Part shown: positions 3,509 to 31,738 of the stretch, piece after piece
How positions within the stretch are numbered: the stretch's first letter is position 1
How the letters are laid out: each line of letters begins with the position of its first letter
Assembly (NCBI GenBank): GCA_965279305.1
Contig: OZ257143.1
Location: 600,001-632,000, forward strand
Length of the DNA stretch: 32,000 bases
Reading direction: 5' to 3'
Source of the DNA: Gammaproteobacteria bacterium
GTDB taxonomy: Bacteria > Pseudomonadota > Gammaproteobacteria > JBIOEC01
The notes under the pieces: generated by a model
The model's database searches: none
Told to the model about the DNA's origin: nothing
The model's input: the letters and a program-made list of their open reading frames with translations, nothing else
Position numbers and translations under genes: made by a program

Positions 3509-4528
3509 CTAATTTCCCAAGCTAGGACTAGAGGATGCTGACGGTGGTGTAGGAGAGCAAGGAATTTGCTCGCTATTTTCGCCTAAAGTATAAAGAGCAC
3601 CTGGACCGTAATCCTTTAGTTCTTTAGTACAATCGAAATGCGACATTCTTACATATACCTTGGGTTCTGGAGCTACAGCCTCTTTAGTTGTTTGTGTTTG
3701 GCTGTATACTCTTAATACCTTAAATACCGGACCATATTTTCCATCGAGCCCTCGGGTCATGGCTAAGAAGTTGGCAGCCCCTATTTTTTCAATATGTGCT
3801 TCTAGGCCAGCCGCAATGGAAGGCATGCTTGGATGTTCAAGAGGAAGCTTATGCGTCCAACGAACTAATCGTTCAAAGTTTCTTTTTTCTTCTTCAGACA
3901 CTGGTTGAAAGCCTGCTTTGGTGGAATAACAATGTCCACGACTATGTACCCCAAACATTCCAGAATTACTTAACTGTGATAGCCTAGTTGGCTTGGCTTC
4001 GTACACAATGATAGCCGCTTGTAAATCTTCGAGTAATTCTTTGTAGTCTGTTTCATCTTTTGGAATACCATAAAGATCTTTATCCTTTTTTTGCAATACT
4101 ATTAACGCTTTTTTTAAATCATTTAAAATTCCTGGCGTATAGCCGTTTACTTCTAAAAAGGCATATAAAATTTCTTGTCTTTCATGATATCTTTTTTTAG
4201 CTGCTTCTAAAACAGGATCTACCGACACAAAAGGGACTGGTCTTTTTCTTAATGCGGTTAAAAGAGGCGCAAGTACTTTGTGATCACCTGCTGCAGATTG
4301 TATCTGAGCTGGAGTTGCATCAGGGTAATGCTGCTGGATTTGTTGTACGGCCTGTTGAAATTTAGGATCATAAGGTGGGCGAGAGGCCGCTTTCTGCACT
4401 AACGATTTAAATTCAGGAGGTGCGGTGCGCTCGCGATCAACATCAGCGGTACTGCTTAAAAAAGATCTAGCGACTAAAACGGTTTCTCGTGTAAGCACTC
4501 TTCTTGCAAATCTTGAAGCGGTTAACAT
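3509..4528 (-). CDS. hypothetical protein (orphan; candidate secreted effector)
   Basis: 339-aa ORF with an ATG start preceded by a TAAGGAT Shine-Dalgarno 7 nt upstream. It has its own AT-rich upstream region (4529-4626). No domain recognised. The N-terminus is Arg-rich (MLTASRFARRVLTRETVLVARSFLSS) and the C-terminal tail is Ser/Pro-rich (PCSPTPPSASSSPSLGN). Confidence 0.75.
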   Translation of the reverse strand: MLTASRFARRVLTRETVLVARSFLSSTADVDRERTAPPEFKSLVQKAASRPPYDPKFQQAVQQIQQHYPDATPAQIQSAAGDHKVLAPLLTALRKRPVPFVSVDPVLEAAKKRYHERQEILYAFLEVNGYTPGILNDLKKALIVLQKKDKDLYGIPKDETDYKELLEDLQAAIIVYEAKPTRLSQLSNSGMFGVHSRGHCYSTKAGFQPVSEEEKRNFERLVRWTHKLPLEHPSMPSIAAGLEAHIEKIGAANFLAMTRGLDGKYGPVFKVLRVYSQTQTTKEAVAPEPKVYVRMSHFDCTKELKDYGPGALYTLGENSEQIPCSPTPPSASSSPSLGN

Positions 4529-10514: not shown

Positions 10515-10543
10515 ATGGTACTGGGTTGGAGGATGAAAGTCAA
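10515..10543 (-). promoter_or_regulatory. candidate sigma70 promoter for rpmH-rnpA-yidD-yidC
   Basis: The minus strand reads TTGACT-N17-TACCAT, with -35 at 10543-10538 and -10 at 10520-15. That is about 40 nt upstream of the rpmH ATG. Pattern match only. Confidence 0.3.
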
Positions 10544-10564
10544 ACATTGTCCTCGGTGTAGGGA

Positions 10565-10618
10565 GTGGTATGGCCTTGAGGCTTATCAAAGACGCCGAAA
10601 ATACATCTTCTAGGGTTA
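10565..10618. repeat. degenerate half-copy of the 112-bp arm-core-arm element
   Basis: ...tggccttgaggcttatcaaagacgccgaaaatacatcttctaggg aligns by eye with tgccacggtctttatccaagacgccgcaagtacgtccctgtaggc, the left arm and first half of the core of the adjacent full copy. Confidence 0.45.
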
Positions 10619-10730
10619 GTGATGCGTGTGCCACGGTCTTTATCCAAGACGCCGCAAGTACGTCCCTGTAGGCTCAGCTTCGGCATCCCTGCCTCAGATG
10701 CTTGGATAACGACCATGGCACATGCATCAC
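10619..10730 (-). repeat. 112-bp palindromic element (30-bp arm / 52-nt core / 30-bp arm), copy A
   Basis: 10619-10648 (gtgatgcgtgtgccacggtctttatccaag) pairs with 10701-10730 (cttggataacgaccatggcacatgcatcac) at 27 of 30 positions. The reverse-complemented 52-nt core differs from the core at 21688-21739 at 6 positions. A further 6 bp of pairing (10612-10617 with 10731-10736) lies beyond a 1-nt bulge. Confidence 0.75.
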
Positions 10731-10740
10731 AACCCTCTTC

Positions 10741-11309
10741 ATGTTTAAATTTTTATGTTAAATTATTTTTTTATGGTTCAATATTTTTTTTGAAATTTAT
10801 TTTATGTTTTATTTATTTTGTTTAACACTATATGTAGTGGGTGTGAGAGGTTGGGGATACAGGTTGTTTCATAGAGATTGTTTTTTTGATTAAATAGTTT
10901 TGTTTGGGATGGTGATGTTAGGTGTGATGTGAAAAATATTTCTTCTTCGTCTTATTATTATATTTCTTTTTTTATGTCATTATAAGGGAGAGCAGTTTTT
11001 GTGGGTAAGTAAAAAAAATGTTTTTAATTTCAAACAAATGGAATAGAATGGACACCCCTGATATGATGTGGATATGTTATGTGAAGGTGTGCATAACTCA
11101 GGATAACTTTTTTTAAGGAGATGAAGTAGCAGTTTTAAACATGGATGTTTTAAGGTTGAGATGATGTTATACACAGCTTGCTAGTCGCTGGTTGATCAGA
11201 CACAATACGATTACCCGTTAGATGTTTGGCAGTTCACGTAGATTTCAGTTTCTAAAGATAGGTAACTGAAATTATTTCAACAATTAATAATGATAAGGTT
11301 TGAACTGTA
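10741..11309. other. putative chromosomal replication origin (oriC) and dnaA upstream region
   Basis: A very AT-rich tract (10741-10830) carries three TTTTATG(T/G)T repeats at 10751, 10769 and 10800. DnaA-box-like 9-mers follow, given as the TTATNCACA-strand reading. They are TTTTTCACA (10928-36), TTACCCACA (11000-08), ATATCCACA (11067-75), TTATGCACA (11088-96) and TTATACACA (11167-75). The region sits in the classic rpmH/dnaA intergenic position. Confidence 0.5.
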
Positions 11310-13894: not shown

Positions 13895-14632
13895 ATGAAA
13901 AGAATACTATTATTTTTTATTACCTTTATATTTATGAATACACTCGCTTCTGCTAAATTGCCGGATGGTTTTGTTTACGTTCATGACGTTGATCCCACTA
14001 TTATTATTAACATGAGTTATGCGCAAGAGCATAATTTTATTGGTAAACCGCTTTCAGGGTACAAAAAAAATGTAGCCATTTTGACGAAAGAAGCAGCGTT
14101 GGCATTAAGCAAAGTTCAACAAGCGGTAAAAAAAGATGGTTATACTCTTGTTATTTATGATGCGTACCGCCCACAAAAAACAGTGGATGAATTTGTGGTA
14201 TGGGGTAAAGATCATAACGATGATAAAATGAAACTTTATTATTATCCTGGTCTTGAAAAAGAAGATATTTTTAAACGTCAGTATGTGGCTGAAAAATCCA
14301 CCCATACTCGCGGCAGCACCGTGGATCTGACTCTTATTCCTATCGGCGATAAAGTAAAACCCATTACAGAAGAAAAAAGAAAATTAAATGATGGTTCTGA
14401 GGTTTATTATTTAAATGATGGCACTTTAGATATGGGAACCAGTTTTGATTTATTTGATAAAGCCTCGCATCCGGATTCCACACTTGTGGATGAAAAGTAT
14501 CAAGCTCGTAGACTTTACCTACAAGAAAAAATGGCGGAACAAGGGTTTATAGAGTATCCTTTTGAATGGTGGCATTTCACTTTGGGGAATGAACCATTTC
14601 CGGATACCTATTTTAACTTTGATGTGGAGTAA
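13895..14632 (+). CDS. D-alanyl-D-alanine dipeptidase (VanX/DdpX, peptidase M15D) with predicted signal peptide
   Basis: 245 aa. The zinc and catalytic blocks are YDAYRP, STHTRGSTVDLTL (SxHxxGxAxD-type) and EWWHFTL. The hydrophobic N-terminus MKRILLFFITFIFMNTLASA looks like a Sec signal. It starts 4 nt after the dnaN stop. Confidence 0.82.
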   Translation: MKRILLFFITFIFMNTLASAKLPDGFVYVHDVDPTIIINMSYAQEHNFIGKPLSGYKKNVAILTKEAALALSKVQQAVKKDGYTLVIYDAYRPQKTVDEFVVWGKDHNDDKMKLYYYPGLEKEDIFKRQYVAEKSTHTRGSTVDLTLIPIGDKVKPITEEKRKLNDGSEVYYLNDGTLDMGTSFDLFDKASHPDSTLVDEKYQARRLYLQEKMAEQGFIEYPFEWWHFTLGNEPFPDTYFNFDVE

Positions 14633-14635
14633 ACG

Positions 14636-15745
14636 ATGTCCCTCATTAAACAACTCACCTTGGGTTTGACTGCTATTCTTTCATTTAATATGGCATTTAA
14701 TGTTGCCCAAGCGGCCGATAAAGTGGTTCATGTATACAATTGGTCTGATTTTATTCCCCCCGATGTGTTAACCCGTTTTGAAAAAGACACAGGCATCAAA
14801 GTGGTTTACGATGTCTTTGATTCTAATGAAGTGTTAGAAACCAAATTATTTGCAGGCCACACGGGCTATGATGTGGTGGTGCCTTCTTCTTCCCCTTTCT
14901 TTGCTAGACAAATTCAAGCGGGCATTTATCAGCCTTTAGACAAAGCCAAGCTAACGAATTATAAAAACCTAGACACTGCTTTATTACAAAAATTAACCGT
15001 ATCAGATCCTGATAATAAATACGGCGTTCCTTATTTGTGGGGTACGGTAGGTATTGGTTATAACGTAGATAAAATAAAAGAGATCTTAGGCCCTGATGTG
15101 AAGCTGGATAGTTGGGATGTCTTATTTAAACCCGAAAATGCAGCCAAGCTTAAAGCGTGCGGCATATCCATGCTGGATTCTTCGGGCGTACTTTCTTTAG
15201 CTTTGGCCTACTTAGGCAAAGACCCTAATAGCACCAATGCACAGGATTACCAAGAAGATGCTAAAAAAGTGCTGATGGATATACGCCCTTATATTACTTA
15301 TTTTCACTCTTCTCAATATATTAACGATTTAGCCAATGGCGATATTTGTATTGCCTTGGGCTGGTCTGGCGATGTGATGCAAGCGTCTAAGCGTGCCAAG
15401 GAAAGTGGCAAAGGGATAAAAATAGAATATATGATCCCTAAAGAAGGTTCGGAAATATTTTTTGATATGATGGCAATTCCAAAAGACTCCAAAAATGTAG
15501 ATAATGCACTGGCCTTTATTAATTATATGATGAGCGCTGAAGTAGCTGCTGAGGCTACTAATTATCTGGGGTATGCTAATGCAAACTCGGCCTCTAACCC
15601 TTTTATTAATCAAAGTATTTTAAATAACCCAGGCATTTACCCTTCTTCTGCAATGGATAGTAAGTTATTTGTTTTAAAAGTAATGCCTCCCAATATTGAT
15701 AGAATAATGACCCGCACCTGGATCACGATAAAAACTGGACATTAA
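14636..15745 (+). CDS. potF: putrescine/polyamine ABC transporter substrate-binding protein (PotF/PotD family), paralogue 1
   Basis: 369 aa with a signal peptide (...FNVAQAADK). PotF-type blocks are YNWSDFIPPDVL..FEK.TGIKV.YD.FDSNE, PYLWGT.GIGYN and NDLANGDIC...WSGD. Confidence 0.86.
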   Translation: MSLIKQLTLGLTAILSFNMAFNVAQAADKVVHVYNWSDFIPPDVLTRFEKDTGIKVVYDVFDSNEVLETKLFAGHTGYDVVVPSSSPFFARQIQAGIYQPLDKAKLTNYKNLDTALLQKLTVSDPDNKYGVPYLWGTVGIGYNVDKIKEILGPDVKLDSWDVLFKPENAAKLKACGISMLDSSGVLSLALAYLGKDPNSTNAQDYQEDAKKVLMDIRPYITYFHSSQYINDLANGDICIALGWSGDVMQASKRAKESGKGIKIEYMIPKEGSEIFFDMMAIPKDSKNVDNALAFINYMMSAEVAAEATNYLGYANANSASNPFINQSILNNPGIYPSSAMDSKLFVLKVMPPNIDRIMTRTWITIKTGH

Positions 15746-15746
15746 A

Positions 15747-16853
15747 ATGAACATTTATAAAAATGCTTTTATTGGGCTTGTTTTTTTTCCTCTATCGGTA
15801 ATGGCTGCAGATGCCGCTACAGAAGAAAAAATATTAAATATTTATAATTGGGCGGATTATATTCCTGCTGATGTGTTGGAAGGCTTTGAAAAAGAAACTG
15901 GAATAAAAGTGAACTATGATACTTTTGATTCTAACGAAATTATGGAATCCAAAATATTAGCAGGCACTAGCGGATACGATTTGGTGGTCCCCACTGATAC
16001 GCCTTTTTTAAAACGTCAAATTGATGCAGGTATTTATCAAACACTAGATAAAACGTTGCTATCGAATTATAAAAATTTAGATGAAGCTTTATTAAAACAA
16101 TTACCTAAAACCGATCCTAAACATGAATATTCTATTCCTTATTTATGGGGTACCTTAGGTATTGGTTACAATGTTGAAAAAGTAAAAAAAGCATTAGGCG
16201 ATGATTTTCCTAAAGATAGCTGGGAGTTGTTTTTTAATCCTAAATATCTTTCTAAATTAAAAGACTGTGGTGTAGGTGTCACGGATTCTGGAACATTTAT
16301 GTTGTCAGTTACTTTACGATATCAAGGAAGAGATCCTAATAGCACAGATGTAAGAGATTATTACGCAGCCAAAATGTTATGGAAAGATATGCGCCCTTCT
16401 ATTCGTTATTTTAGTAATAGCCAACATATTAATGATTTAGCCAATGGTGATATTTGTTTATCTGTAACATGGTCCGGTGATGTGATGATGGCTAAAGAAC
16501 GAGCGAAAGAAGCTAAGAACGGACAAGTGATTGAATATATTATTCCTAAAGAAGGCACGTTTGTTGGGTTTGATAATTTTGCTATTCCTAAAGATGCTAA
16601 GCATGTAAAAGAAGCGCATCTATTTATTGATTATATGTTGCGTGCTGAATCAGCAGCGAGAGCTTCTAATGAATTGGGATATCCTAATGCGAATAAAGCA
16701 TCCTATGATTTATTAGATAAAGACTTAAGGACAGATCCGAATGTTTATCCCCCTGCAATTGTTATGAAAAAATTCTATGCTTTAGATCCGGTGGGGCCTG
16801 TTGCAGAGCGCGCTCGCACTCGACTCTGGACTTCTATCACGGCTGGCCGCTAA
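15747..16853 (+). CDS. potF: putrescine/polyamine ABC transporter substrate-binding protein (PotF/PotD family), paralogue 2
   Basis: 368 aa with a signal peptide (...LSVMAADA). It shows the same conserved blocks as paralogue 1, with roughly half the positions identical by eye. It starts 1 nt after the paralogue 1 stop. Confidence 0.86.
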   Translation: MNIYKNAFIGLVFFPLSVMAADAATEEKILNIYNWADYIPADVLEGFEKETGIKVNYDTFDSNEIMESKILAGTSGYDLVVPTDTPFLKRQIDAGIYQTLDKTLLSNYKNLDEALLKQLPKTDPKHEYSIPYLWGTLGIGYNVEKVKKALGDDFPKDSWELFFNPKYLSKLKDCGVGVTDSGTFMLSVTLRYQGRDPNSTDVRDYYAAKMLWKDMRPSIRYFSNSQHINDLANGDICLSVTWSGDVMMAKERAKEAKNGQVIEYIIPKEGTFVGFDNFAIPKDAKHVKEAHLFIDYMLRAESAARASNELGYPNANKASYDLLDKDLRTDPNVYPPAIVMKKFYALDPVGPVAERARTRLWTSITAGR

Positions 16854-16895
16854 AACATTCCGTCATTGCGAGGCCGCTTCGGCCGTGGCATCCAT

Positions 16896-17723
16896 TTAAA
16901 GATCTTTATTTTCTTTTTGGCGACGTTTATCGTTACGAATAGTCATTAAAGTAGCGAGGATACCAATAGTGGTTACGATGGCAATCATCACACTGGCCAG
17001 CGCGTTAATTTTAGGGTTAACACCTAAACGCACGCTAGAATAAATCTGCATAGGCAACGTGGTTGAGCTAGGGCCCGCCACAAAGCTAGAAATGACCAAG
17101 TCATCTATTGATAAAGTAAACGCTAGTAACCAGCCGGATATTAATGCCGGAGCGATAATGGGTAACGTAATGACAAAAAACACTTTCATTGGTGTCGCCC
17201 CTAAATCCATGGCAGCCTGCTCTAATGACTCATCCATTTCACGTAATCGTGATGAAACAATAATAGCTACGTAAGACGTGGTAAAAGTAACATGGGCAAT
17301 CCATAGTGTTAGCATGCCTCGCCCTTCTGGAAACCCTATCATTTCCTGCGAGGCTACAAATAAGAGTAATAACGATAAACCGGTTATCACTTCTGGCATT
17401 ACCAAGGGAATACTCATTAGGGCTGAGAAAAGAGTTTTACCTTTAAACTTTCCTAAACGGGTAAGGATTAACCCCACTGCTGTTCCTAGGCCTACTGCGG
17501 CAGTAGCACTAAAGATAGCAATTCGTAAACTCACCCAAGCAGCAGATAACAATGCTTTGTCATTTAATAGTTCTTGATACCAAATAGTAGAAAAACCAGA
17601 CCATACGGTGACTAGTTTTGATTCATTAAAGGAATAAACGATTAAGATAGCGATAGGAATATACAAAAAAGCATATCCAAAAGCTAAAGCTGAAAAGAGA
17701 AAGCGCGAGCGTTTAGGCGTCAT
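16896..17723 (-). CDS. potI: polyamine ABC transporter permease PotI
   Basis: Multi-TM permease with the EAA-type loop EQAAMDLGATPMKVFFVITLPIIAP. I place the start at ATG 17723 (MTPKRSRF...), which overlaps the potH stop as ATGA. The track ORF's 35-codon extension runs inside potH. Confidence 0.86.
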   Translation of the reverse strand: MTPKRSRFLFSALAFGYAFLYIPIAILIVYSFNESKLVTVWSGFSTIWYQELLNDKALLSAAWVSLRIAIFSATAAVGLGTAVGLILTRLGKFKGKTLFSALMSIPLVMPEVITGLSLLLLFVASQEMIGFPEGRGMLTLWIAHVTFTTSYVAIIVSSRLREMDESLEQAAMDLGATPMKVFFVITLPIIAPALISGWLLAFTLSIDDLVISSFVAGPSSTTLPMQIYSSVRLGVNPKINALASVMIAIVTTIGILATLMTIRNDKRRQKENKDL

Positions 17724-18628
17724 GAGCGTTCCTCTTCTATCGATTTGTTTTGGTAATAAGTAAATAAGAGAATGGGGATCATCAACATAATGACCATTAC
17801 CACGGCAACGGCTGATGCCACAGGCCAATCACGATTATTAAAAAATTCTTGCCATAATACTTTACCAATCATCAAGGTATCGGGGCCGCCTAATAAATCA
17901 GGGATCACAAATTCACCCACGGCAGGAATAAAAACTAACATGGCGCCTGCAATAATACCTGCTTTAGATAAAGGAATGGTAATGCTCCAAAAAGCTTTCC
18001 ATGGGCGCGCCCCTAAATCCATGGCGGCATCTAGCAAACCATAATCAATTTTGACGAGAATGGCATAAAGAGGCAATATCATAAAAGGTAAGTAACCATA
18101 AACAATTCCTAAATACACTGCAAAATCGGTGTGCAATAAAGCAAGAGGTTGATCGATAATTCCAAGGCTCATGAGTAATTGATTAAGCATGCCATTATTT
18201 TTTAAAATTCCCATCCAGGCATAAATACGAATTAAAAAAGAAGTCCATGATGGCAATACGACTAACATTAATAAAAAATGGCGAAGAGGTGTTGGTGTGC
18301 GAGCAATGGCATATGCCATTGGATAACCGATTAATAAACAGAGTATAGTAGAAATAAATGCAATTTTTAGAGAGCTTAAATAAGCAGCAGCATATAAAGC
18401 ATCAGTAAATAAAAAAAGATAATTGGCAAAGCTGGCAGTGATATGTAAGCTGCCATTCGCCCAATGAAATAAATTGGTATAAGGCGGAATGGAAACGGCC
18501 ATTTGGCTGAAGCTAATTTTGAATACAATTAATAGCGGAATAACCAGGAAAAAAATAAACCACAAAACCGTCAGTGATATAAGAAGAGAATGATTAGAGC
18601 GAAACAGTGAGTTTAGATACTGTTTCAT
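17720..18628 (-). CDS. potH: polyamine ABC transporter permease PotH
   Basis: 302-aa multi-TM permease with the EAA loop DAAMDLGARPWKAFWSITIPLSK. Its ATGA start overlaps the potG stop. Confidence 0.88.
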   Translation of the reverse strand: MKQYLNSLFRSNHSLLISLTVLWFIFFLVIPLLIVFKISFSQMAVSIPPYTNLFHWANGSLHITASFANYLFLFTDALYAAAYLSSLKIAFISTILCLLIGYPMAYAIARTPTPLRHFLLMLVVLPSWTSFLIRIYAWMGILKNNGMLNQLLMSLGIIDQPLALLHTDFAVYLGIVYGYLPFMILPLYAILVKIDYGLLDAAMDLGARPWKAFWSITIPLSKAGIIAGAMLVFIPAVGEFVIPDLLGGPDTLMIGKVLWQEFFNNRDWPVASAVAVVMVIMLMIPILLFTYYQNKSIEEERS

Positions 18629-19785
18629 ACGCTTAACACCACCGCACTATCGGGTTCCCAGCTAACATATACTTTGTCATTCCAGGTGATTTCTAATTTG
18701 TTTTTGCGATCCATATTGTAAATATTGGCGAGAATAATTTTTCCGCTAGGAAGTGCAATATGATAAATAGAATGGCTTCCCATATACGCGATATCTCGAA
18801 CGAAACCTTTCACACTGTTTTGATATTTATTATTGGAAATATCTTTGGGTGCTTTCTTAGATAAAAACATTTTTTCAGGACGAACTCCTACCCACACTTC
18901 CATTCCTAAATCATAAGAAACGCCGTGATTAACATAAATAGGATTTTCCAAATCAGGAGATTTAATTAAAACATATTCGGCTTCATCTTCAATAATCACG
19001 CCTTTAAATAAATTAATCGATCCAATAAAATCGGCAGTGAATAAAGTAGTGGGTGTTTCGTATACTTCTTTGGGAGCGCCGATTTGTAAAATGCGTCCTT
19101 TATCCATTACACCAATACGTCCTGTCATGGTCATCGCTTCTTCTTGATCATGCGTTACCATTAAACAGGTTACACCTACGCTTTCAATAATATTAGCAAT
19201 CTCTAATTGCATTTGTTCACGCAATTGTTTATCTAATGCTCCCATGGGTTCATCAAGCAATAATAGTTTCGGTTGTTTTGCTAAACTTCTGGCGAGTGCC
19301 ACACGCTGACGTTGTCCGCCTGATAATTGATGAGGTTTTCGTTTGGCATAGGCATCCATTTGAACCATCTGTAACATTTTTTCTACGCGTTCTTTAATCA
19401 ATGCTTTTGGCATTTTGTCTTGCTTAAGTCCGAACGCAATATTTTGTTCAACAGTCATATGAGGAAACAATGCATAAGATTGGAACATCATATTCACTGG
19501 ACGTAAATAAGGAGGAACATGGGTCATATCAACGCCATCAATAAAGAATTGACCGCGTGTAGGCTCTTCAAAGCCCGCTAACATATGTAATAGCGTGGAT
19601 TTTCCGCTACCAGAGCTGCCTAATAGCCCAAATATTTCACCTTTTTTGATGTCTAAGCTAACGTTATCGACCGCTACAAACCGATCAAAGGCCTTGGTTA
19701 GTCCTTTTATTTGTATATAAGCGTCATTTTTCTCTTTAGAAAGCGCATCTTGAGGCGGTTGAACATTTAAAAAAGGATCTGTCAT
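18625..19785 (-). CDS. potG: polyamine ABC transporter ATP-binding protein PotG/PotA
   Basis: 386 aa with Walker A GSSGSGKST, ABC signature LSGGQRQRVALAR, Walker B LLLLDEP and a C-terminal TOBE-like regulatory domain. Confidence 0.92.
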   Translation of the reverse strand: MTDPFLNVQPPQDALSKEKNDAYIQIKGLTKAFDRFVAVDNVSLDIKKGEIFGLLGSSGSGKSTLLHMLAGFEEPTRGQFFIDGVDMTHVPPYLRPVNMMFQSYALFPHMTVEQNIAFGLKQDKMPKALIKERVEKMLQMVQMDAYAKRKPHQLSGGQRQRVALARSLAKQPKLLLLDEPMGALDKQLREQMQLEIANIIESVGVTCLMVTHDQEEAMTMTGRIGVMDKGRILQIGAPKEVYETPTTLFTADFIGSINLFKGVIIEDEAEYVLIKSPDLENPIYVNHGVSYDLGMEVWVGVRPEKMFLSKKAPKDISNNKYQNSVKGFVRDIAYMGSHSIYHIALPSGKIILANIYNMDRKNKLEITWNDKVYVSWEPDSAVVLSV

Positions 19786-20451: not shown

Positions 20452-21564
20452 ATGATCCTGTCTCGCCTGCGTATTCAAACTCTACGTAATCTAACAGAGC
20501 TGGAAATAGAACCCTGCTCTCAACTGAATTGTTTAATGGGCGTTAATGGCAGCGGCAAAACCAGCATATTAGAAGCTATTCATCTATTAGGTTTAGGGCG
20601 TTCGTTTCGCTCTTCTCAATTAAATCGTGTTATTCAGCATGGCACTAAAGAATTGCTCATTTTTGCAGAGTTAAAAGAGCCTGCCGCACAAGCCTCTTCT
20701 GCCAAAATTGGTTTTTCAAAAGATCTACAGGGAAAAACGCGAATAAAGCATAACGGCGATCCTTTGCATTCTTTGGCGGAGTTAGCAGAGCTATTGCCCG
20801 TTCTTTTGTTATATACAGAGTCTTATACTTTATTCCGCGATTCCCCTGGAGCTAGACGTAAATGGTTAGATTGGGGTATGTTCCACGTGGAACCTCGTTT
20901 TTTCCCCTTATGGAAGAAGTTGCATCGAGTAATACAGCAAAGAAACATCTTATTGAAGCAAGGCGCTTCGGATCTAGATATAAAAGTGTGGGATCAGCAA
21001 TTAATTGAGTGGGCTGAAGCCATACATCTATTGCGCACCGAGTTTGTAGCCAAATGGCAGCTGGCCATGTCCCCTATTTTACGTTCTTTGTTTGATAGAG
21101 AGGATTTGCTGTTATCTTATTCTCCAGGATGGGACTTAGAGTTAGGTTTAGCTGCTCATTTGGCGCGATCACTGAGCAGAGACCGTATGATGGGGCATAC
21201 CACGCGGGGACCTCATCGTGCCGATATTCAAATTTACATTAATGGCATCCCTGCGCAGCATACACTCTCTTTAGGACAGCAAAAACTGCTGGTGAGCGGT
21301 ATTGTTCTCTCTCAAGCCGTTGCTGTACAGCAGCTTGCAGGCAAATCTCCGTTATTGCTGATTGATGATCTGCCTGCTGAGCTAGATGAGGCGGCTAGAG
21401 AGCGAATTGCCGCGATTATTCATACTCTAGATGCGCAAATCTTTCTTACAGGCATCGATCGCCACACCCTAGACCCCTTTATCTCCCATCCCGCGTCCAA
21501 AATGTTCCACGTAGAACATGGCTCCCTCTCTCCAATTCCTCCCTCCACCCCTATAGAAGCGTGA
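20452..21564 (+). CDS. recF: DNA replication and repair protein RecF
   Basis: 370 aa with Walker A GVNGSGKTSILEA, the SMC-like signature LSLGQQKLL and Walker B LLLIDDLPAELD. Confidence 0.95.
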   Translation: MILSRLRIQTLRNLTELEIEPCSQLNCLMGVNGSGKTSILEAIHLLGLGRSFRSSQLNRVIQHGTKELLIFAELKEPAAQASSAKIGFSKDLQGKTRIKHNGDPLHSLAELAELLPVLLLYTESYTLFRDSPGARRKWLDWGMFHVEPRFFPLWKKLHRVIQQRNILLKQGASDLDIKVWDQQLIEWAEAIHLLRTEFVAKWQLAMSPILRSLFDREDLLLSYSPGWDLELGLAAHLARSLSRDRMMGHTTRGPHRADIQIYINGIPAQHTLSLGQQKLLVSGIVLSQAVAVQQLAGKSPLLLIDDLPAELDEAARERIAAIIHTLDAQIFLTGIDRHTLDPFISHPASKMFHVEHGSLSPIPPSTPIEA

Positions 21565-21611
21565 ATTTTTGATATTGAATCCCCCTCACCCGACCACGCA
21601 TAGCGTGGCCG

Positions 21612-21645
21612 ACCTCTCCCTCAAGGGAGAGGTGATTTTATATTT
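21612..21645 (+). terminator. candidate intrinsic terminator after recF
   Basis: A perfect 9-bp stem, acctctccc (21612-20) / gggagaggt (21625-33), has loop tcaa and is followed by gattttatatttt. A second hairpin, ccacgc-ata-gcgtgg (21594-21608), precedes it. Confidence 0.5.
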
Positions 21646-21657
21646 TATCTTGGGTGA

Positions 21658-21769
21658 GGCATGATGCATGGGGATGTCTCTGCCCAGCATCTGAGCCAGG
21701 GATGGCGAAGCTGAGTCTACATGGATGTACTTGCGACGTCTGGGCAGAGACATCCCCATGCATCATGCC
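21658..21769 (+). repeat. 112-bp palindromic element (30-bp arm / 52-nt core / 30-bp arm), copy B
   Basis: 21658-21687 (ggcatgatgcatggggatgtctctgcccag) is the perfect reverse complement of 21740-21769. The core at 21688-21739 matches the reverse-complemented core of copy A at 46 of 52 positions. Confidence 0.8.
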
Positions 21770-21873
21770 ACAGGAAAAGAACGCGTCTTGGCGGGCCGAA
21801 TACCCACCGCTTACTTCCCCAAAAGAGCCGCATTACAAACGCTATTATTACATCGCTAAACATGGTAAAATAA

Positions 21874-24580: not shown

Positions 24581-26167
24581 ATGGTTAGATATTTAGACGT
24601 TATATCAAATAAGTACGCAGGCGAATTTACGTACGTGCGTGATCATGAAAGAGATATTCTTGATTCCAATCGTTTAAGCGGGAATGCTCTGCGTGAAGAA
24701 ATAACTCGCTATTATAACAGCGATGTATCTCGTGCTTTTGCCGAAATTGAAGTAGGCGATTTTCCTTCTGAGATGACAGAAGCTGATGGAACAGTATTGT
24801 TAGATAATTTATATCTCAAAGAAACAGACTCTAAAACCGCAGAACACAATTTAGAAATCTGGTGGAATAAACGGGTAAAAGATTTCTTTGAAGATTTGAA
24901 CCGTATTGATGAAAAGACAAATACGACATATGCGGAACAAATATTTTCAAAAGTTCAATTGGGAAATGAACGTTTTCAAGACTACGCAGTAGGATTGCCC
25001 ATCTATCTTGCCAATACTTATCTTCAAAGAGCAACCATGAAAGCTCTTACTTTTGCTTCTGCTGAAATGCAAAGAACGGGCGGCAGCTGGCTAGGTAATG
25101 TATTAAGTTCGAAAACCCAAGATATAGTAAATAACCTTCTTGCTGAAAGAAAAGCAGATTTTGATTTGCGTACTCAAGAAAGACTGGAAGATTTTGCCAA
25201 TGCACTTAGTGATATAAGTACATTCTCTGAAGATGAGATAGCAGATGCTGTTATTCTTTCTGAAGATGACATCGCTGGCGCTTTAGACGGCGAACTGCAA
25301 AGAGCAGAAAAAGGCGAGCATACGCTAGCTACCCCTGATCAGCACCCTACTTCTTTACCGCGTGAAAAGGGGGCGTTGAAAAAATTGGATCAGTGGATCT
25401 TTGGTCACAAAACAGATAAAGCTGCATCAGAAAAATTAGCTCATGAGATTATCAATTATCTTTATACAGAAGATGACGCAGGCAAATTTAATATACACAA
25501 ATTAATGGATGAATTGATTGATACCAAAGGAAATTCTGCTGAATATAATCGTTACCAGCAAAAATGTGTGGCACAAGTATTTAATTATGTATTTGATATG
25601 ATTAGAGGTCATTCTGCTTCTCCGGAGAATCAAAAATACAGAAATAAATTATTGGAAAAAGAAAATAAAGCCCAAGCTAATATTAGTAAGCGCGAAGGTA
25701 TTTCCTTAGTTACCGCCGTAAGACGATTTAACGCACGTTTACAAAGAGTTAAACCGGCTGATCTTAAAGAAACCTTTTTTGAAGACTCTTTGAGCAAAGC
25801 GGGTGCTTTGTATGGAAATGAAGGTCGCCGTGTATCAAGTGCCGAAAAAAATACATTAAGAGATGAATTAGTAGATAACGTTAATGATATCACTAACAAA
25901 TTAGATAACGCTTCTTTAGGATTCCGTGATACGCTAAAAACATTTATAAAAGACATGGTTGAATGGGTTGCTAAGAAATTCACTCGTAGTGCCGATGCTG
26001 TATATGATAGTACCGGTGCGTTGAGTAGTAGTTCGGCAAGCACTCAAAGTTCTCGATTTGTAGGAAGAACTACGCAAGAATTCCATAAAGATGTAGAGAA
26101 GTTTGTTCCTACTAAAAAAGAACTTTTAACTCCGCCGCCATCCCATGGCGCAGCCCCTAGCGCTTAA
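24581..26167 (+). CDS. hypothetical protein (orphan; candidate secreted effector)
   Basis: 528-aa hydrophilic ORF with no signal peptide, no TM segment and no recognised domain. It has an acidic 11-aa tandem repeat, SEDEIADAVIL/SEDDIAGALDG. The C-terminal tail is Ser/Pro/Ala-rich (...SSSSASTQSS...ELLTPPPSHGAAPSA). Confidence 0.75.
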   Translation: MVRYLDVISNKYAGEFTYVRDHERDILDSNRLSGNALREEITRYYNSDVSRAFAEIEVGDFPSEMTEADGTVLLDNLYLKETDSKTAEHNLEIWWNKRVKDFFEDLNRIDEKTNTTYAEQIFSKVQLGNERFQDYAVGLPIYLANTYLQRATMKALTFASAEMQRTGGSWLGNVLSSKTQDIVNNLLAERKADFDLRTQERLEDFANALSDISTFSEDEIADAVILSEDDIAGALDGELQRAEKGEHTLATPDQHPTSLPREKGALKKLDQWIFGHKTDKAASEKLAHEIINYLYTEDDAGKFNIHKLMDELIDTKGNSAEYNRYQQKCVAQVFNYVFDMIRGHSASPENQKYRNKLLEKENKAQANISKREGISLVTAVRRFNARLQRVKPADLKETFFEDSLSKAGALYGNEGRRVSSAEKNTLRDELVDNVNDITNKLDNASLGFRDTLKTFIKDMVEWVAKKFTRSADAVYDSTGALSSSSASTQSSRFVGRTTQEFHKDVEKFVPTKKELLTPPPSHGAAPSA

Positions 26168-30101: not shown

Positions 30102-30890
30102 TTAGGGGATGTGGGCGTGAGTGATAAGGCCAGCGAGTGTCCAGGCTTTTAATAATGAAGCCGCGCGTAGTGCAATATGTTCATCTTCTTGTGAATAGTT
30201 AGCTAAGCCTTCACATATTTCTCCAAAGGTAGCGCCTGCTTGCATGGCATCGATAGCCCAGGCTTCATCTTCTGCTATAGAGCAAAAGTGATTCATTAAA
30301 TCGTTTCGCCAAAAAATCCAAGGTACAGGTGTTTCATTTATTTCAGGCGCAGGCGGATCTTCTTCATTATTTAAGGCTTGCCATAGCGCTACTACATTCC
30401 ACGATAAATTGACGCGATGCAAAGAAGGATGCGGCTGTAATTTCATATTTATCCAATCGTTAGGTGATATATGAGACAGCGTTTCTATAGATATACTCTG
30501 TGCATTTTCTGAATCAAATACCAGCGCCATTAACCATTCTATTTGTGCTAGTTCGGCTAGGTATGGATAGTTTTGATAAACACGGTGTTGTTTTAAAAAA
30601 ACAGCTAAATGATCTCCAAACCAGCGGATAGAACGAAAGGTAGAAGGATAAACATCGGCATATTCATTTCCCAAAGTGTTAAATCTTTCCTCTCCCATAT
30701 AGATTAAAAGGGCTGGATAGGTAATGGTTAATGTTTCAATTAAACGAGATTTGTAAGCATGGGCATAAATAGCTAAGCGTTTTTCTGCAGAGACATTTTT
30801 TGTGCTGACAATGGAATTTTTAATTTGTAGTTTTTGTGGATCTAATAAGTGTTGTTGAAATGCGTTTTGTAATAAGGGTAGTTCGCTCAT
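30102..30890 (-). CDS. DUF2063-family protein (HvfC/BufC-like partner of DUF692 enzymes)
   Basis: 262 aa. The pattern LQNAFQQHLL...RLAIYAHAYKSRLIETL...YPAL...G...F..L...Y....PS...S.RWFGDHL..FL is typical of DUF2063. Its ATGA start overlaps the upstream DUF692 gene's stop. Confidence 0.83.
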   Translation of the reverse strand: MSELPLLQNAFQQHLLDPQKLQIKNSIVSTKNVSAEKRLAIYAHAYKSRLIETLTITYPALLIYMGEERFNTLGNEYADVYPSTFRSIRWFGDHLAVFLKQHRVYQNYPYLAELAQIEWLMALVFDSENAQSISIETLSHISPNDWINMKLQPHPSLHRVNLSWNVVALWQALNNEEDPPAPEINETPVPWIFWRNDLMNHFCSIAEDEAWAIDAMQAGATFGEICEGLANYSQEDEHIALRAASLLKAWTLAGLITHAHIP

Positions 30891-31738
30891 GCCGGTGTTT
30901 CCATAGCTAAATGGTGTTTTGCTATTTGACGTGCATGATTAAGTTCTTTTATAAGCTCTTCTAGAGGAGGAATATGATCATCACGCTCAATCATAGTAGA
31001 AATGGGGCCAAAACGTTTTAGTGTTTTGTCATAGAGATCCCAGACCGGATCGACAATAGGATGATCATGTGTATCAATAATGCAATCATCTAAACGAGAA
31101 TGTCCTGCTAAATGAATTTGAAACACTCTATCTAACGGCAATGCGTTAATATAATCTACAGGATTAAATTCATGATTAACGGAACTTACATAAACATTAT
31201 TAACATCTAATAAAATAAGACAATCCGCTTTTTCGGCAATAGCAGATAAAAATTCCCATTCAGACATTACCGATTGTTGATAGGTAATATAGCTCGAGAG
31301 ATTTTCAATTAAGATGCGTTGTCCTAAAAAATCTTGTACTTGATGTATACGAGAAGCAACATGATTGATGGCTTCTTCTGTGTAAGGTAATGGTAATAAA
31401 TCATGCATGTTTTTTTGATCAACACCTGTCCAACAAAGATGATCCGATAACCATTGAGGTTTTACCCGCTCCATTAAAGTTTTCACTTGGCGCAAATAAT
31501 CCCAATCGATAGGATCGGTGCTGCCTATCGATAAAGACACACCATGCATTACCATAGGATATTTTTCGCGAATTCGATCCAGATAATATAACGGTTTGCC
31601 GCCAGGAACTAAGTAATTTTCGGTTAAAATTTCGAGCCAATCTACAGGAGGGTTGTTATTCAAAATAGCCTCGTAATGATCGGGTCTTAAACCTAATCCG
31701 AAGCCTAAAAATTTTTTGTGTGGGGTTGAATATGTCAT
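30887..31738 (-). CDS. DUF692/UPF0276 family enzyme (multinuclear non-haem iron oxidase type; MbnB/HvfB/BufB-like)
   Basis: 283 aa. The blocks GFGLGLRPDHY, VDWLEILTENY, MHGVSLSIGS, LSDHLCW, LIENLSSY, LLDVNNVYVS and IHLAGHS are characteristic of DUF692 TIM-barrel proteins. Confidence 0.9.
   Translation of the reverse strand: MTYSTPHKKFLGFGLGLRPDHYEAILNNNPPVDWLEILTENYLVPGGKPLYYLDRIREKYPMVMHGVSLSIGSTDPIDWDYLRQVKTLMERVKPQWLSDHLCWTGVDQKNMHDLLPLPYTEEAINHVASRIHQVQDFLGQRILIENLSSYITYQQSVMSEWEFLSAIAEKADCLILLDVNNVYVSSVNHEFNPVDYINALPLDRVFQIHLAGHSRLDDCIIDTHDHPIVDPVWDLYDKTLKRFGPISTMIERDDHIPPLEELIKELNHARQIAKHHLAMETPA

Follow-up and report, generated by a model that had tools for sequence, protein, structure and literature searches.

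The 32,000-nt stretch of gammaproteobacterial DNA analysed here (the window) carries two copies of a hairpin repeat, copy B (21655-21772, plus strand) and copy A (10614-10735, minus strand), which on sequence comparison are best explained as short-form members of a superfamily that includes the TwoAYGGAY RNA motif and the YPAL/RU-2 MITEs. Elements of this kind are known, although how they work is unsolved, and the window holds a new short form of them. The structure, covariation, homology and turnover of the repeat are counted here as shown, and the best explanation for it is a non-coding, non-autonomous, mobile element. We lean towards a version of this explanation in which a protein encoded elsewhere recognises a single-stranded form of the element through its conserved, strand-specific core, and consider that version probably, if only just, correct.

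In both copies, self-complementary arms of 30-35 bp flank a 52-nt core, as established by direct reading and with a repeat finder. The arms of copy B are complementary at all 30 of their inner positions (21658-21687 with 21740-21769) and extend to 33 nt at 97% complementarity (21655-21687 with 21740-21772). The 30+52+30 layout recurs in copy A on the minus strand, where the arms extend to 35 nt at 86% (10614-10648 with 10701-10735). The two cores are identical at 46 of 52 positions. Four of the six differences form true compensatory pairs, C-G in B and G-C in A at positions 9/18 and U-A and C-G at positions 29/49, and the remaining two (positions 35 and 39) are loop positions. An earlier note on this DNA had claimed the geometry with its opposite orientations, the 46/52 core match with four compensatory differences, and distances of 167 nt from copy B to gyrB and 142 nt from copy A to rpmH, all of which hold. 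A degenerate core pattern matches twice in the window, compared with 0.00 matches expected, and when folded, either strand of each copy reaches -62 to -77 kcal/mol (z-scores of -7 to -10). The coordinates of the elements and of their surroundings are collected in Table 1.

Table 1. Parts of the two hairpin copies and neighbouring features of the window, in window coordinates.
Feature	Position	Strand	Remarks
Copy B, 5' arm	21655..21687	+	33 nt; inner 30 nt pair perfectly with 3' arm
Copy B, core	21688..21739	+	52 nt
Copy B, closing 2-bp helix	21688-21689 with 21712-21713	+	
Copy B, hairpin 1	21691-21697 with 21704-21710	+	contains tandem G.A/A.G; loop AGGGAT, 21698-21703
Copy B, hairpin 2	outer 21715-21717 with 21735-21737; inner 21718-21720 with 21727-21729	+	loop ATGGAT, 21721-21726
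Copy B, hairpin 2, 3' bulge	21730-21734	+	
Copy B, 3' arm	21740..21772	+	
Copy A, 5' arm	10701..10735	-	read on the GGA (minus) strand
Copy A, core	10649..10700	-	52 nt; loops AGGGAT and AGGGAC; 94% identical to L016 copy b
Copy A, 3' arm	10614..10648	-	
Orphan remnant of an older family member	10569..10598	+	one arm and first 6 core nt (ggccttgaggcttatcaaag+acgccg)
Terminator-like hairpin with T-rich tail, downstream of recF	21612..21633	+	context, not part of the element; copy B starts 21 nt later
Minus-strand genes		-	rsmG, mnmG, two genes, rimK-like, mnmE, yidC, yidD, rnpA, rpmH
Plus-strand genes		+	dnaA, dnaN, six-gene peptidase/ABC-transporter block, recF, gyrB

A single fold, in which an outer stem encloses a 2-bp helix and two hairpins with A-N-G-G-A-Y loops, is common to 11 distinct copies from the window's lineage, Reinekea and four enterobacterial genera. 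In the alignment of these copies, which was fitted to a covariance model, 88% of cells are paired, compared with 32-46% when the partners are slid as a control, 17 of 23 pairs have changed on both sides, and none of 500 shuffles reaches the observed values. A six-sequence alignment made with MAFFT only agrees (83% paired, 14 pairs with double changes), and RNAalifold recovers the same helices plus a covarying 2-bp helix C-N/N'-G, in which the pair counts are A-U 5, C-G 3, G-C 2 and G-U 1. Across copies, hairpin 1 has 7 bp and the loop A[A/G]GGAU, hairpin 2 has 2-3 plus 3-4 bp, the loop ANGGAY and a 3' bulge of 4-5 nt, and the core closes with a final GU. The loops found among relatives are AGGGAU, AAGGAU, A-GGAU, AUGGAU and ACGGAC, which leaves A-N-G-G-A-Y as the conserved unit; the GGGA tetraloop of GNRA type read into the core by the earlier note is not conserved as such. 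The tandem G.A/A.G of hairpin 1, present in the window's lineage and Reinekea, alternates with G-C/C-G in the enteric copies and in L016 copy c, and the arms hold 12 G.U compared with five A.C mismatches. This alternation and this excess identify the GGA strand as the one that folds, and on it alone the core forms the 2-bp closing helix and the two small hairpins. The 112-nt minimal version shows what is probably indispensable: the two A-N-G-G-A-Y hairpins, the 2-bp closing helix and any stem of ~33 bp.

The TwoAYGGAY RNA motif was described by Weinberg et al. 2010 (PMC2864571), and its description includes a long, poorly sequence-conserved enclosing stem and tandem G.A in a stem (PMC4333381). 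The window copies have both, with arms of 33-35 bp and G.A/A.G at core nt 6-7 and 20-21. At Rfam gathering thresholds there are no matches in the window. With E-value thresholds on short stretches, TwoAYGGAY (RF01731) is the best structured-RNA match and aligns over the full length of the model, so that the small structured RNA family suggested in the earlier note was close to the mark. The scores against RF01731 are 31.9 bits for copy B, 24.9 for copy A, 39.7 for the Reinekea copy and 18.9 for YPAL, all full-length and all below the 43-bit gathering threshold; two canonical TwoAYGGAY copies of Agathobacter rectalis score 148.6 and 159.2 bits. Our own covariance model gives canonical TwoAYGGAY copies only ~17 bits. 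All four window loops (AGGGAU and AUGGAU in B, AGGGAU and AGGGAC in A) fit A-N-G-G-A-Y, and one of the four fits the strict AYGGAY. Conserved internal-loop segments separate the outer stem of TwoAYGGAY from its hairpins, and the alignments of copy B and the Reinekea copy show deletions at these model positions. The canonical copies of A. rectalis (L013 607-870, L013 5948-6212 and L014 ~32060-32340) are each enclosed by an extra near-perfect inverted repeat of 46-52 bp, which lies outside the Rfam model and differs from copy to copy.

When 185,579 genomes were scanned with a 21-base core pattern, a single match came up, in Reinekea marinisedimentorum, where the core, hairpins and loops are the same and the arms are wholly different yet perfectly complementary. 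The arms of this copy (L001 1882-1992) score 36 bits to the model of the plant MIR8670 precursor with an identical run of 13 nt, which is probably a generic long-hairpin effect, and the matches to miRNA precursors (mir-876, MIR8670 and others) were set aside as generic matches of long hairpins. A self-cleaving ribozyme (hammerhead, twister) was also rejected: the core motif is absent by eye, and a twister-P1 match of 17 bits falls outside the element. The only match of a metagenome scan, contig L002 4880-4990, has related hairpins with ATGGAC, AGGGAT and ATGAAC loops, lacks the long arms, shares an identical GCCAGGGATGGCGAAGCTGAG stretch and follows a 911-aa ORF and a terminator. Scans of viral contigs found no copies, and blastn of the core of L006 copy c against plasmids returned noise only.

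De Gregorio 2006 is said to be a source for the YPAL miniature insertion sequences of Yersinia. In a blastn search of 7.3 Gb of plasmids and phages, only the core of copy B aligned with YPAL/RU-2 in Yersinia (80.7% over 57 nt, E = 8e-4), and the Yersinia match is letter for letter the published 168-nt RU-2/YPAL repeat. YPAL-type copies reach 80-88 bits with our covariance model. Plasmids of E. coli, Klebsiella and Citrobacter carry diverged YPAL-like copies, and such copies are also found in Pantoea and Enterobacter. With copies in two sister lineages, Reinekea and enterobacteria, the case that only the two window copies exist, which the earlier note had named as refuting its proposal, does not arise. 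On the opposite strand, the Yersinia element matches Rfam Ysr224 (RF02770) with 134 bits; Ysr224 comprises the core and one arm of YPAL/RU-2 on the strand opposite the GGA loops (L003 2999-3105, L004 326-432, L005 2999-3105), and in L003 a ryfA sRNA (179 bits) lies directly upstream of it. An Enterobacter chuandaensis plasmid (L011) carries two copies with different arms in opposite orientation, ~150 nt apart (2283-2356, minus, and 2506-2577, plus). YPAL-type copies duplicate the flanking terminator hairpin over 19, 14 and ~20 bp. These 14-20 bp agree with the published target duplications of 3-26 bp beside dyad symmetry, for which empty and filled sites have been reported (PMC2229807); YPAL/RU-2 as miniature insertion sequences of Yersinia are also treated by Delihas 2007 (PMC2759123, PMC2229807).

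Close relatives of the window's lineage give a record of turnover. The window and the sister lineage L016 are 93.8% identical over 17 kb, and the homology breaks exactly at two patches, 10540-10790 and 21532-21842. In L016, one copy (a) occupies the site of A, and the recF-gyrB spacer contains two more, b (reversed) and c. The core of copy A is only 85% identical to copy a, at its own locus, compared with 94% to copy b, at another locus, and the orphan remnant, 21 nt from copy A, is identical at 25 of 26 positions to the arm of L016 copy a at that site. The spacers of L006 and L016 hold different copies than the window at the same sites, L007 (GyrB 89% identical) has a 120-nt recF-gyrB spacer without the element, and the regions seen of L008 (GyrB 84%), L018 (DnaA 87%) and L019 (DnaA 79%) contain no copies. 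In terms of the filled and empty sites known for YPAL, L007, L018 and L019 are empty and L006 and L016 are differently occupied. Judged from these alignments, copies have appeared, disappeared or given way to others at a few intergenic hot spots beside terminators or dyad symmetries within ~6% sister divergence. L006 and L016 are 95.4% identical overall; their elements b and c are identical without one difference, and the flanks differ by ~5%. Because the L006 and L016 elements are identical and the sister spacers are differently occupied, the elements are stable between events, and at preferred sites one element is exchanged for another as a whole. The same identity amid flanks ~5% apart rules out hypermutation of the arms in situ. 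This identity also looks like purifying selection for a host-level function, which counts against the mobile reading. Homology to L016 is absent from the final ~30 nt of recF and the G+C-rich stretch that follows (21532-21654, including the hairpin at 21612-21633), so close relatives differ in the C-terminus of RecF; the stop codon of recF in L016 falls inside an element arm.

The arms have a history different from that of the cores. Beyond the inner ~5 nt, arms of different copies resemble each other no more than shuffled sequences do, with the sole exception of A and L016 copy a (13/25, P = 0.006 without correction for the 15 comparisons). The arms of all six window-type copies measure 33-38 bp. 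Near-identical cores (94%) carry unrelated arms, and no two sampled copies have arms in common. The earlier note had proposed that pairing rather than sequence is conserved in arms that differ yet remain self-complementary, and this is borne out across the family. An origin of the arms as 'spacers' from phages or plasmids was rejected, since seven arms compared by BLAST with 50,697 phage and 72,556 plasmid records gave self-matches only. The arms may be rebuilt at insertion, the rest of the genome may hold many arm subfamilies, or the cores may spread by gene conversion; these are the three candidate readings. In Yersinia the YPAL arms are clearly inherited. Copy-specific arms appear to be unlike those of any known MITE, which counts against a mobile element, as does the absence of a consistent target-site duplication at the long-arm (window-type) copies.

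The reading towards which we lean, a mobile element recognised through its folded core, would operate as follows. The conserved unit is the ~52-nt core, clamped by a 33-38-bp stem that has a sequence of its own in each copy and would be needed only as a stem. A trans-acting protein encoded outside the window would recognise the folded single-stranded GGA strand, as RNA or ssDNA, using the core as a handle, and this recognition would serve the copying or moving of the hairpin element. No transposase, Y1/HUH enzyme or reverse transcriptase was found in the 32-kb window, one part of a genome of at least 1.87 Mb, or beside the 14 copies inspected (ORFs and annotation). If the element were transcribed, a hairpin of -66 to -76 kcal/mol with two loops fitting the CsrA/RsmA consensus would arise as a side effect.

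These loops are central to a regulatory alternative, which we think unlikely. The element would be a CsrA/RsmA-binding RNA in which the two GGA loops, ~23 nt apart, bind one CsrA dimer, and it would act as a sponge or as a local regulator or stabiliser of gyrB and rpmH mRNA. Both loops fit the CANGGANG motif, but this motif is not enriched across the window, and each element offers two sites only. Hairpin 2 of copy B (UACAUGGAUGUA) agrees with the SELEX consensus of CsrA, RUACARGGAUGU, at 11 of 12 positions. In our own tally, the GGA strand is sense to the neighbouring gene in ~11 of 14 independent copies, a bias that fits a role at the RNA level and counts against a reading of mobility only; together with the CsrA-consensus loops it makes an RNA-level role or an RNA intermediate plausible. 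Antisense copies nevertheless exist (L016 copy b, L009 and the second L011 copy), and Yersinia Ysr224 is annotated on the opposite strand. The identity of the L006 and L016 elements despite diverged flanks would also suit regulation, and the same role was proposed for TwoAYGGAY by Gardner et al. (PMC4333381). Scans of the window give the element neither a promoter of its own nor a U-tract terminator: the sole promoter-like site near rpmH falls between copy A and rpmH, the sequence after copy B is ACAGGAAAAG, and the terminator scan flags only the hairpin upstream of it (21612-21633). Binding of CsrA would moreover leave the 33-38-bp copy-specific stems and the turnover unexplained.

In a second alternative, a reverse transcriptase encoded elsewhere would use the hairpin as its template or partner RNA; the RNA would be copied into cDNA, snap-back synthesis would restore a perfect stem and the product would be reintegrated. 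We consider this distinctly improbable. It would agree with the strand specificity of the fold, the bias towards sense, the perfection of the arms and the variable length (3-26 bp) of YPAL duplications, but no reverse-transcriptase gene lies in the window or adjoins any copy examined, and the ORFs of the window and the annotation around other copies contain no reverse-transcriptase domain of the kind that accompanies a retron or RT-linked ncRNA. A match in Pseudomonas sp. FeN3W (L012) near an annotated reverse transcriptase lies inside a CDS without the GGA hairpin and was discarded as a chance match. A bioRxiv preprint (10.64898/2026.09.22.753630, September 2026) provides a lead only: it contains 'TwoAYGGAY' 52 times, 'cDNA' 24 times and 'transcriptase' 14 times, has 'transcriptase' in the abstract and uses the phrase 'TwoAYGGAY element'. 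'CsrA' does not occur in it, and neither, against this alternative, do 'retrotranspos' and 'mobile element'.

The core could also be a self-contained mobile module to which a fresh inverted repeat of ~33 bp is given with each new copy, a 'hairpin retro-MITE', which we put forward as a speculation that is rather improbable. The source of the repeat could be an inverted duplication of target DNA, or else fold-back or snap-back synthesis with an RNA-to-cDNA or ssDNA intermediate. The scheme is compatible with the data: unrelated arms accompany 94%-identical cores, the length of the arms is uniform, they do not change between events, and none are shared among the sampled copies.

An ordinary DNA-level element, either a MITE of TIR type with a DDE transposase or a hairpin of REP/RAYT or IS200/IS605 type (PATE), is very unlikely. 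The repeat is intergenic, multi-copy and palindromic as such elements are, and YPAL is classed as a MITE in the literature. However, the termini vary between copies and so offer no fixed TIR to a transposase, the conserved part is internal and strand-asymmetric, the element has three times the length of a REP, no TnpA or RAYT ORF is present in the window, and no fixed-length target duplication is seen. The earlier note was right to doubt a classical MITE with fixed terminal repeats, since termini and arms differ between copies, but its suggestion of REP/RAYT or IS200/IS605 PATE is not supported: REP hallmarks are absent, and the window has no Y1 or other transposase ORF. Inert palindromes or a chance resemblance without function or mobility, for which nothing speaks beyond the small sample size, deserve next to no credence in view of the 0.00 expected matches, the z-scores of -7 to -10, the cross-genus covariation and the homologues in several orders.

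The window is otherwise an ordinary chromosomal origin region. The rpmH-dnaA spacer has an AT-rich stretch (10740-10830) and a cluster of four DnaA-box matches of 8/9 (11000-11175), and the window as a whole has 17 DnaA-box-like sites compared with 9.2 expected; this spacer is likely to be oriC, with copy A at its rpmH-side edge. The six genes between dnaN and recF (13895-19785) encode a peptidase M15, two paralogous solute-binding proteins (~69% nucleotide identity between their genes, repeat D1), two permeases and an ABC ATPase. This block interrupts the usual dnaA-dnaN-recF-gyrB order and is present in L016 and partly in L019. Directly after gyrB, a 528-aa ORF (24581-26167, plus) has no Pfam/NCBIfam match; it is absent there in L008, and a homologue follows gyrB in L006. 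A 339-aa ORF (3509-4528, minus) likewise has no Pfam/NCBIfam match, and its L016 counterpart adjoins an extra gene with a Bro-N domain. At 30102-31738 (minus), a DUF2063 gene is paired with a gene of the MbnB/TglH/ChrH family, which suggests a RiPP-type peptide-modification locus.

To our knowledge, the TwoAYGGAY RNA motif has remained an orphan since 2010, and no mobilising enzyme has become known for the YPAL MITE since 2006. Among the papers listed in the literature searched, none appears under both names. The window provides a minimal 112-nt version of the TwoAYGGAY/YPAL superfamily that displays its indispensable parts, and the comparison of sister lineages separates the histories of cores and arms. 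If the arms are rebuilt at each insertion, this would be a new mechanism of mobility; a 'hairpin retro-MITE', if true, would be a mode of transposition undescribed for bacteria that unites the TwoAYGGAY motif with the YPAL elements. Should the loops bind CsrA, a mobile element would be spreading CsrA sites to positions next to housekeeping genes (gyrB, rpmH/oriC). The September 2026 preprint (10.64898/2026.09.22.753630) may already address the TwoAYGGAY family.

Among known systems, the Csr/Rsm sRNAs (CsrB, CsrC, RsmY, RsmZ) share GGA motifs in hairpin loops that fit CANGGANG, whereas the window element has two sites, lacks a dedicated promoter and terminator, is multi-copy and presumably mobile, and lies inside a 33-bp stem. 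Rfam, we assume, places TwoAYGGAY in clan CL00106 together with these sponge sRNAs. Recognition of a structure on one strand, as in REP/RAYT systems and IS200/IS605 PATEs, is the kind of mechanism we infer for the window element. In contrast to these systems, it has no GTAG or CGTC head, does not measure 20-40 bp and forms no clusters, and the window encodes no RAYT, TnpA ORF or Y1 transposase. The Correia/NEMIS, ERIC and RUP MITEs are comparable in that they measure ~100-170 bp, are transcribed together with adjacent genes and form long hairpins, which in the case of Correia elements serve as RNase III substrates; these MITEs have fixed terminal inverted repeats and TA duplications, whereas in elements of the window type the termini vary and the centre is conserved.

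The closest relatives are the two families named at the outset. Like TwoAYGGAY, the window copies have two adjacent hairpins with A-N-G-G-A-Y loops in a long outer stem of variable sequence, tandem G.A in a stem and stand-alone intergenic copies in Gammaproteobacteria, and they resemble the canonical A. rectalis copies in their copy-specific, near-perfect outer arms. They are shorter (112-118 nt compared with ~170 nt plus arms), lack the two conserved internal-loop segments, have a hairpin 2 of 6 bp with a 5-nt bulge rather than of ~15 bp, and often have G instead of Y at loop position 2. With YPAL/RU-2 they share a homologous core with the same helices and loops, a composition that is not A+T-rich, a position beside terminators or dyad symmetry, and filled as opposed to empty sites among close relatives. 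YPAL measures 167-168 bp and the window copies 112-122 bp, of which the 52-nt core alone aligns; YPAL arms are ~60 nt, imperfect and inherited by all copies, whereas the window arms are short, perfect and copy-specific; YPAL makes duplications of 3-26 bp, whereas none is detectable at the window copies; and the tandem G.A of hairpin 1 is replaced by G-C/C-G in YPAL. Since the window copies fall below the Rfam threshold for TwoAYGGAY and differ from YPAL in length and arms, yet share the cores of both, they are best regarded as a new short variant.
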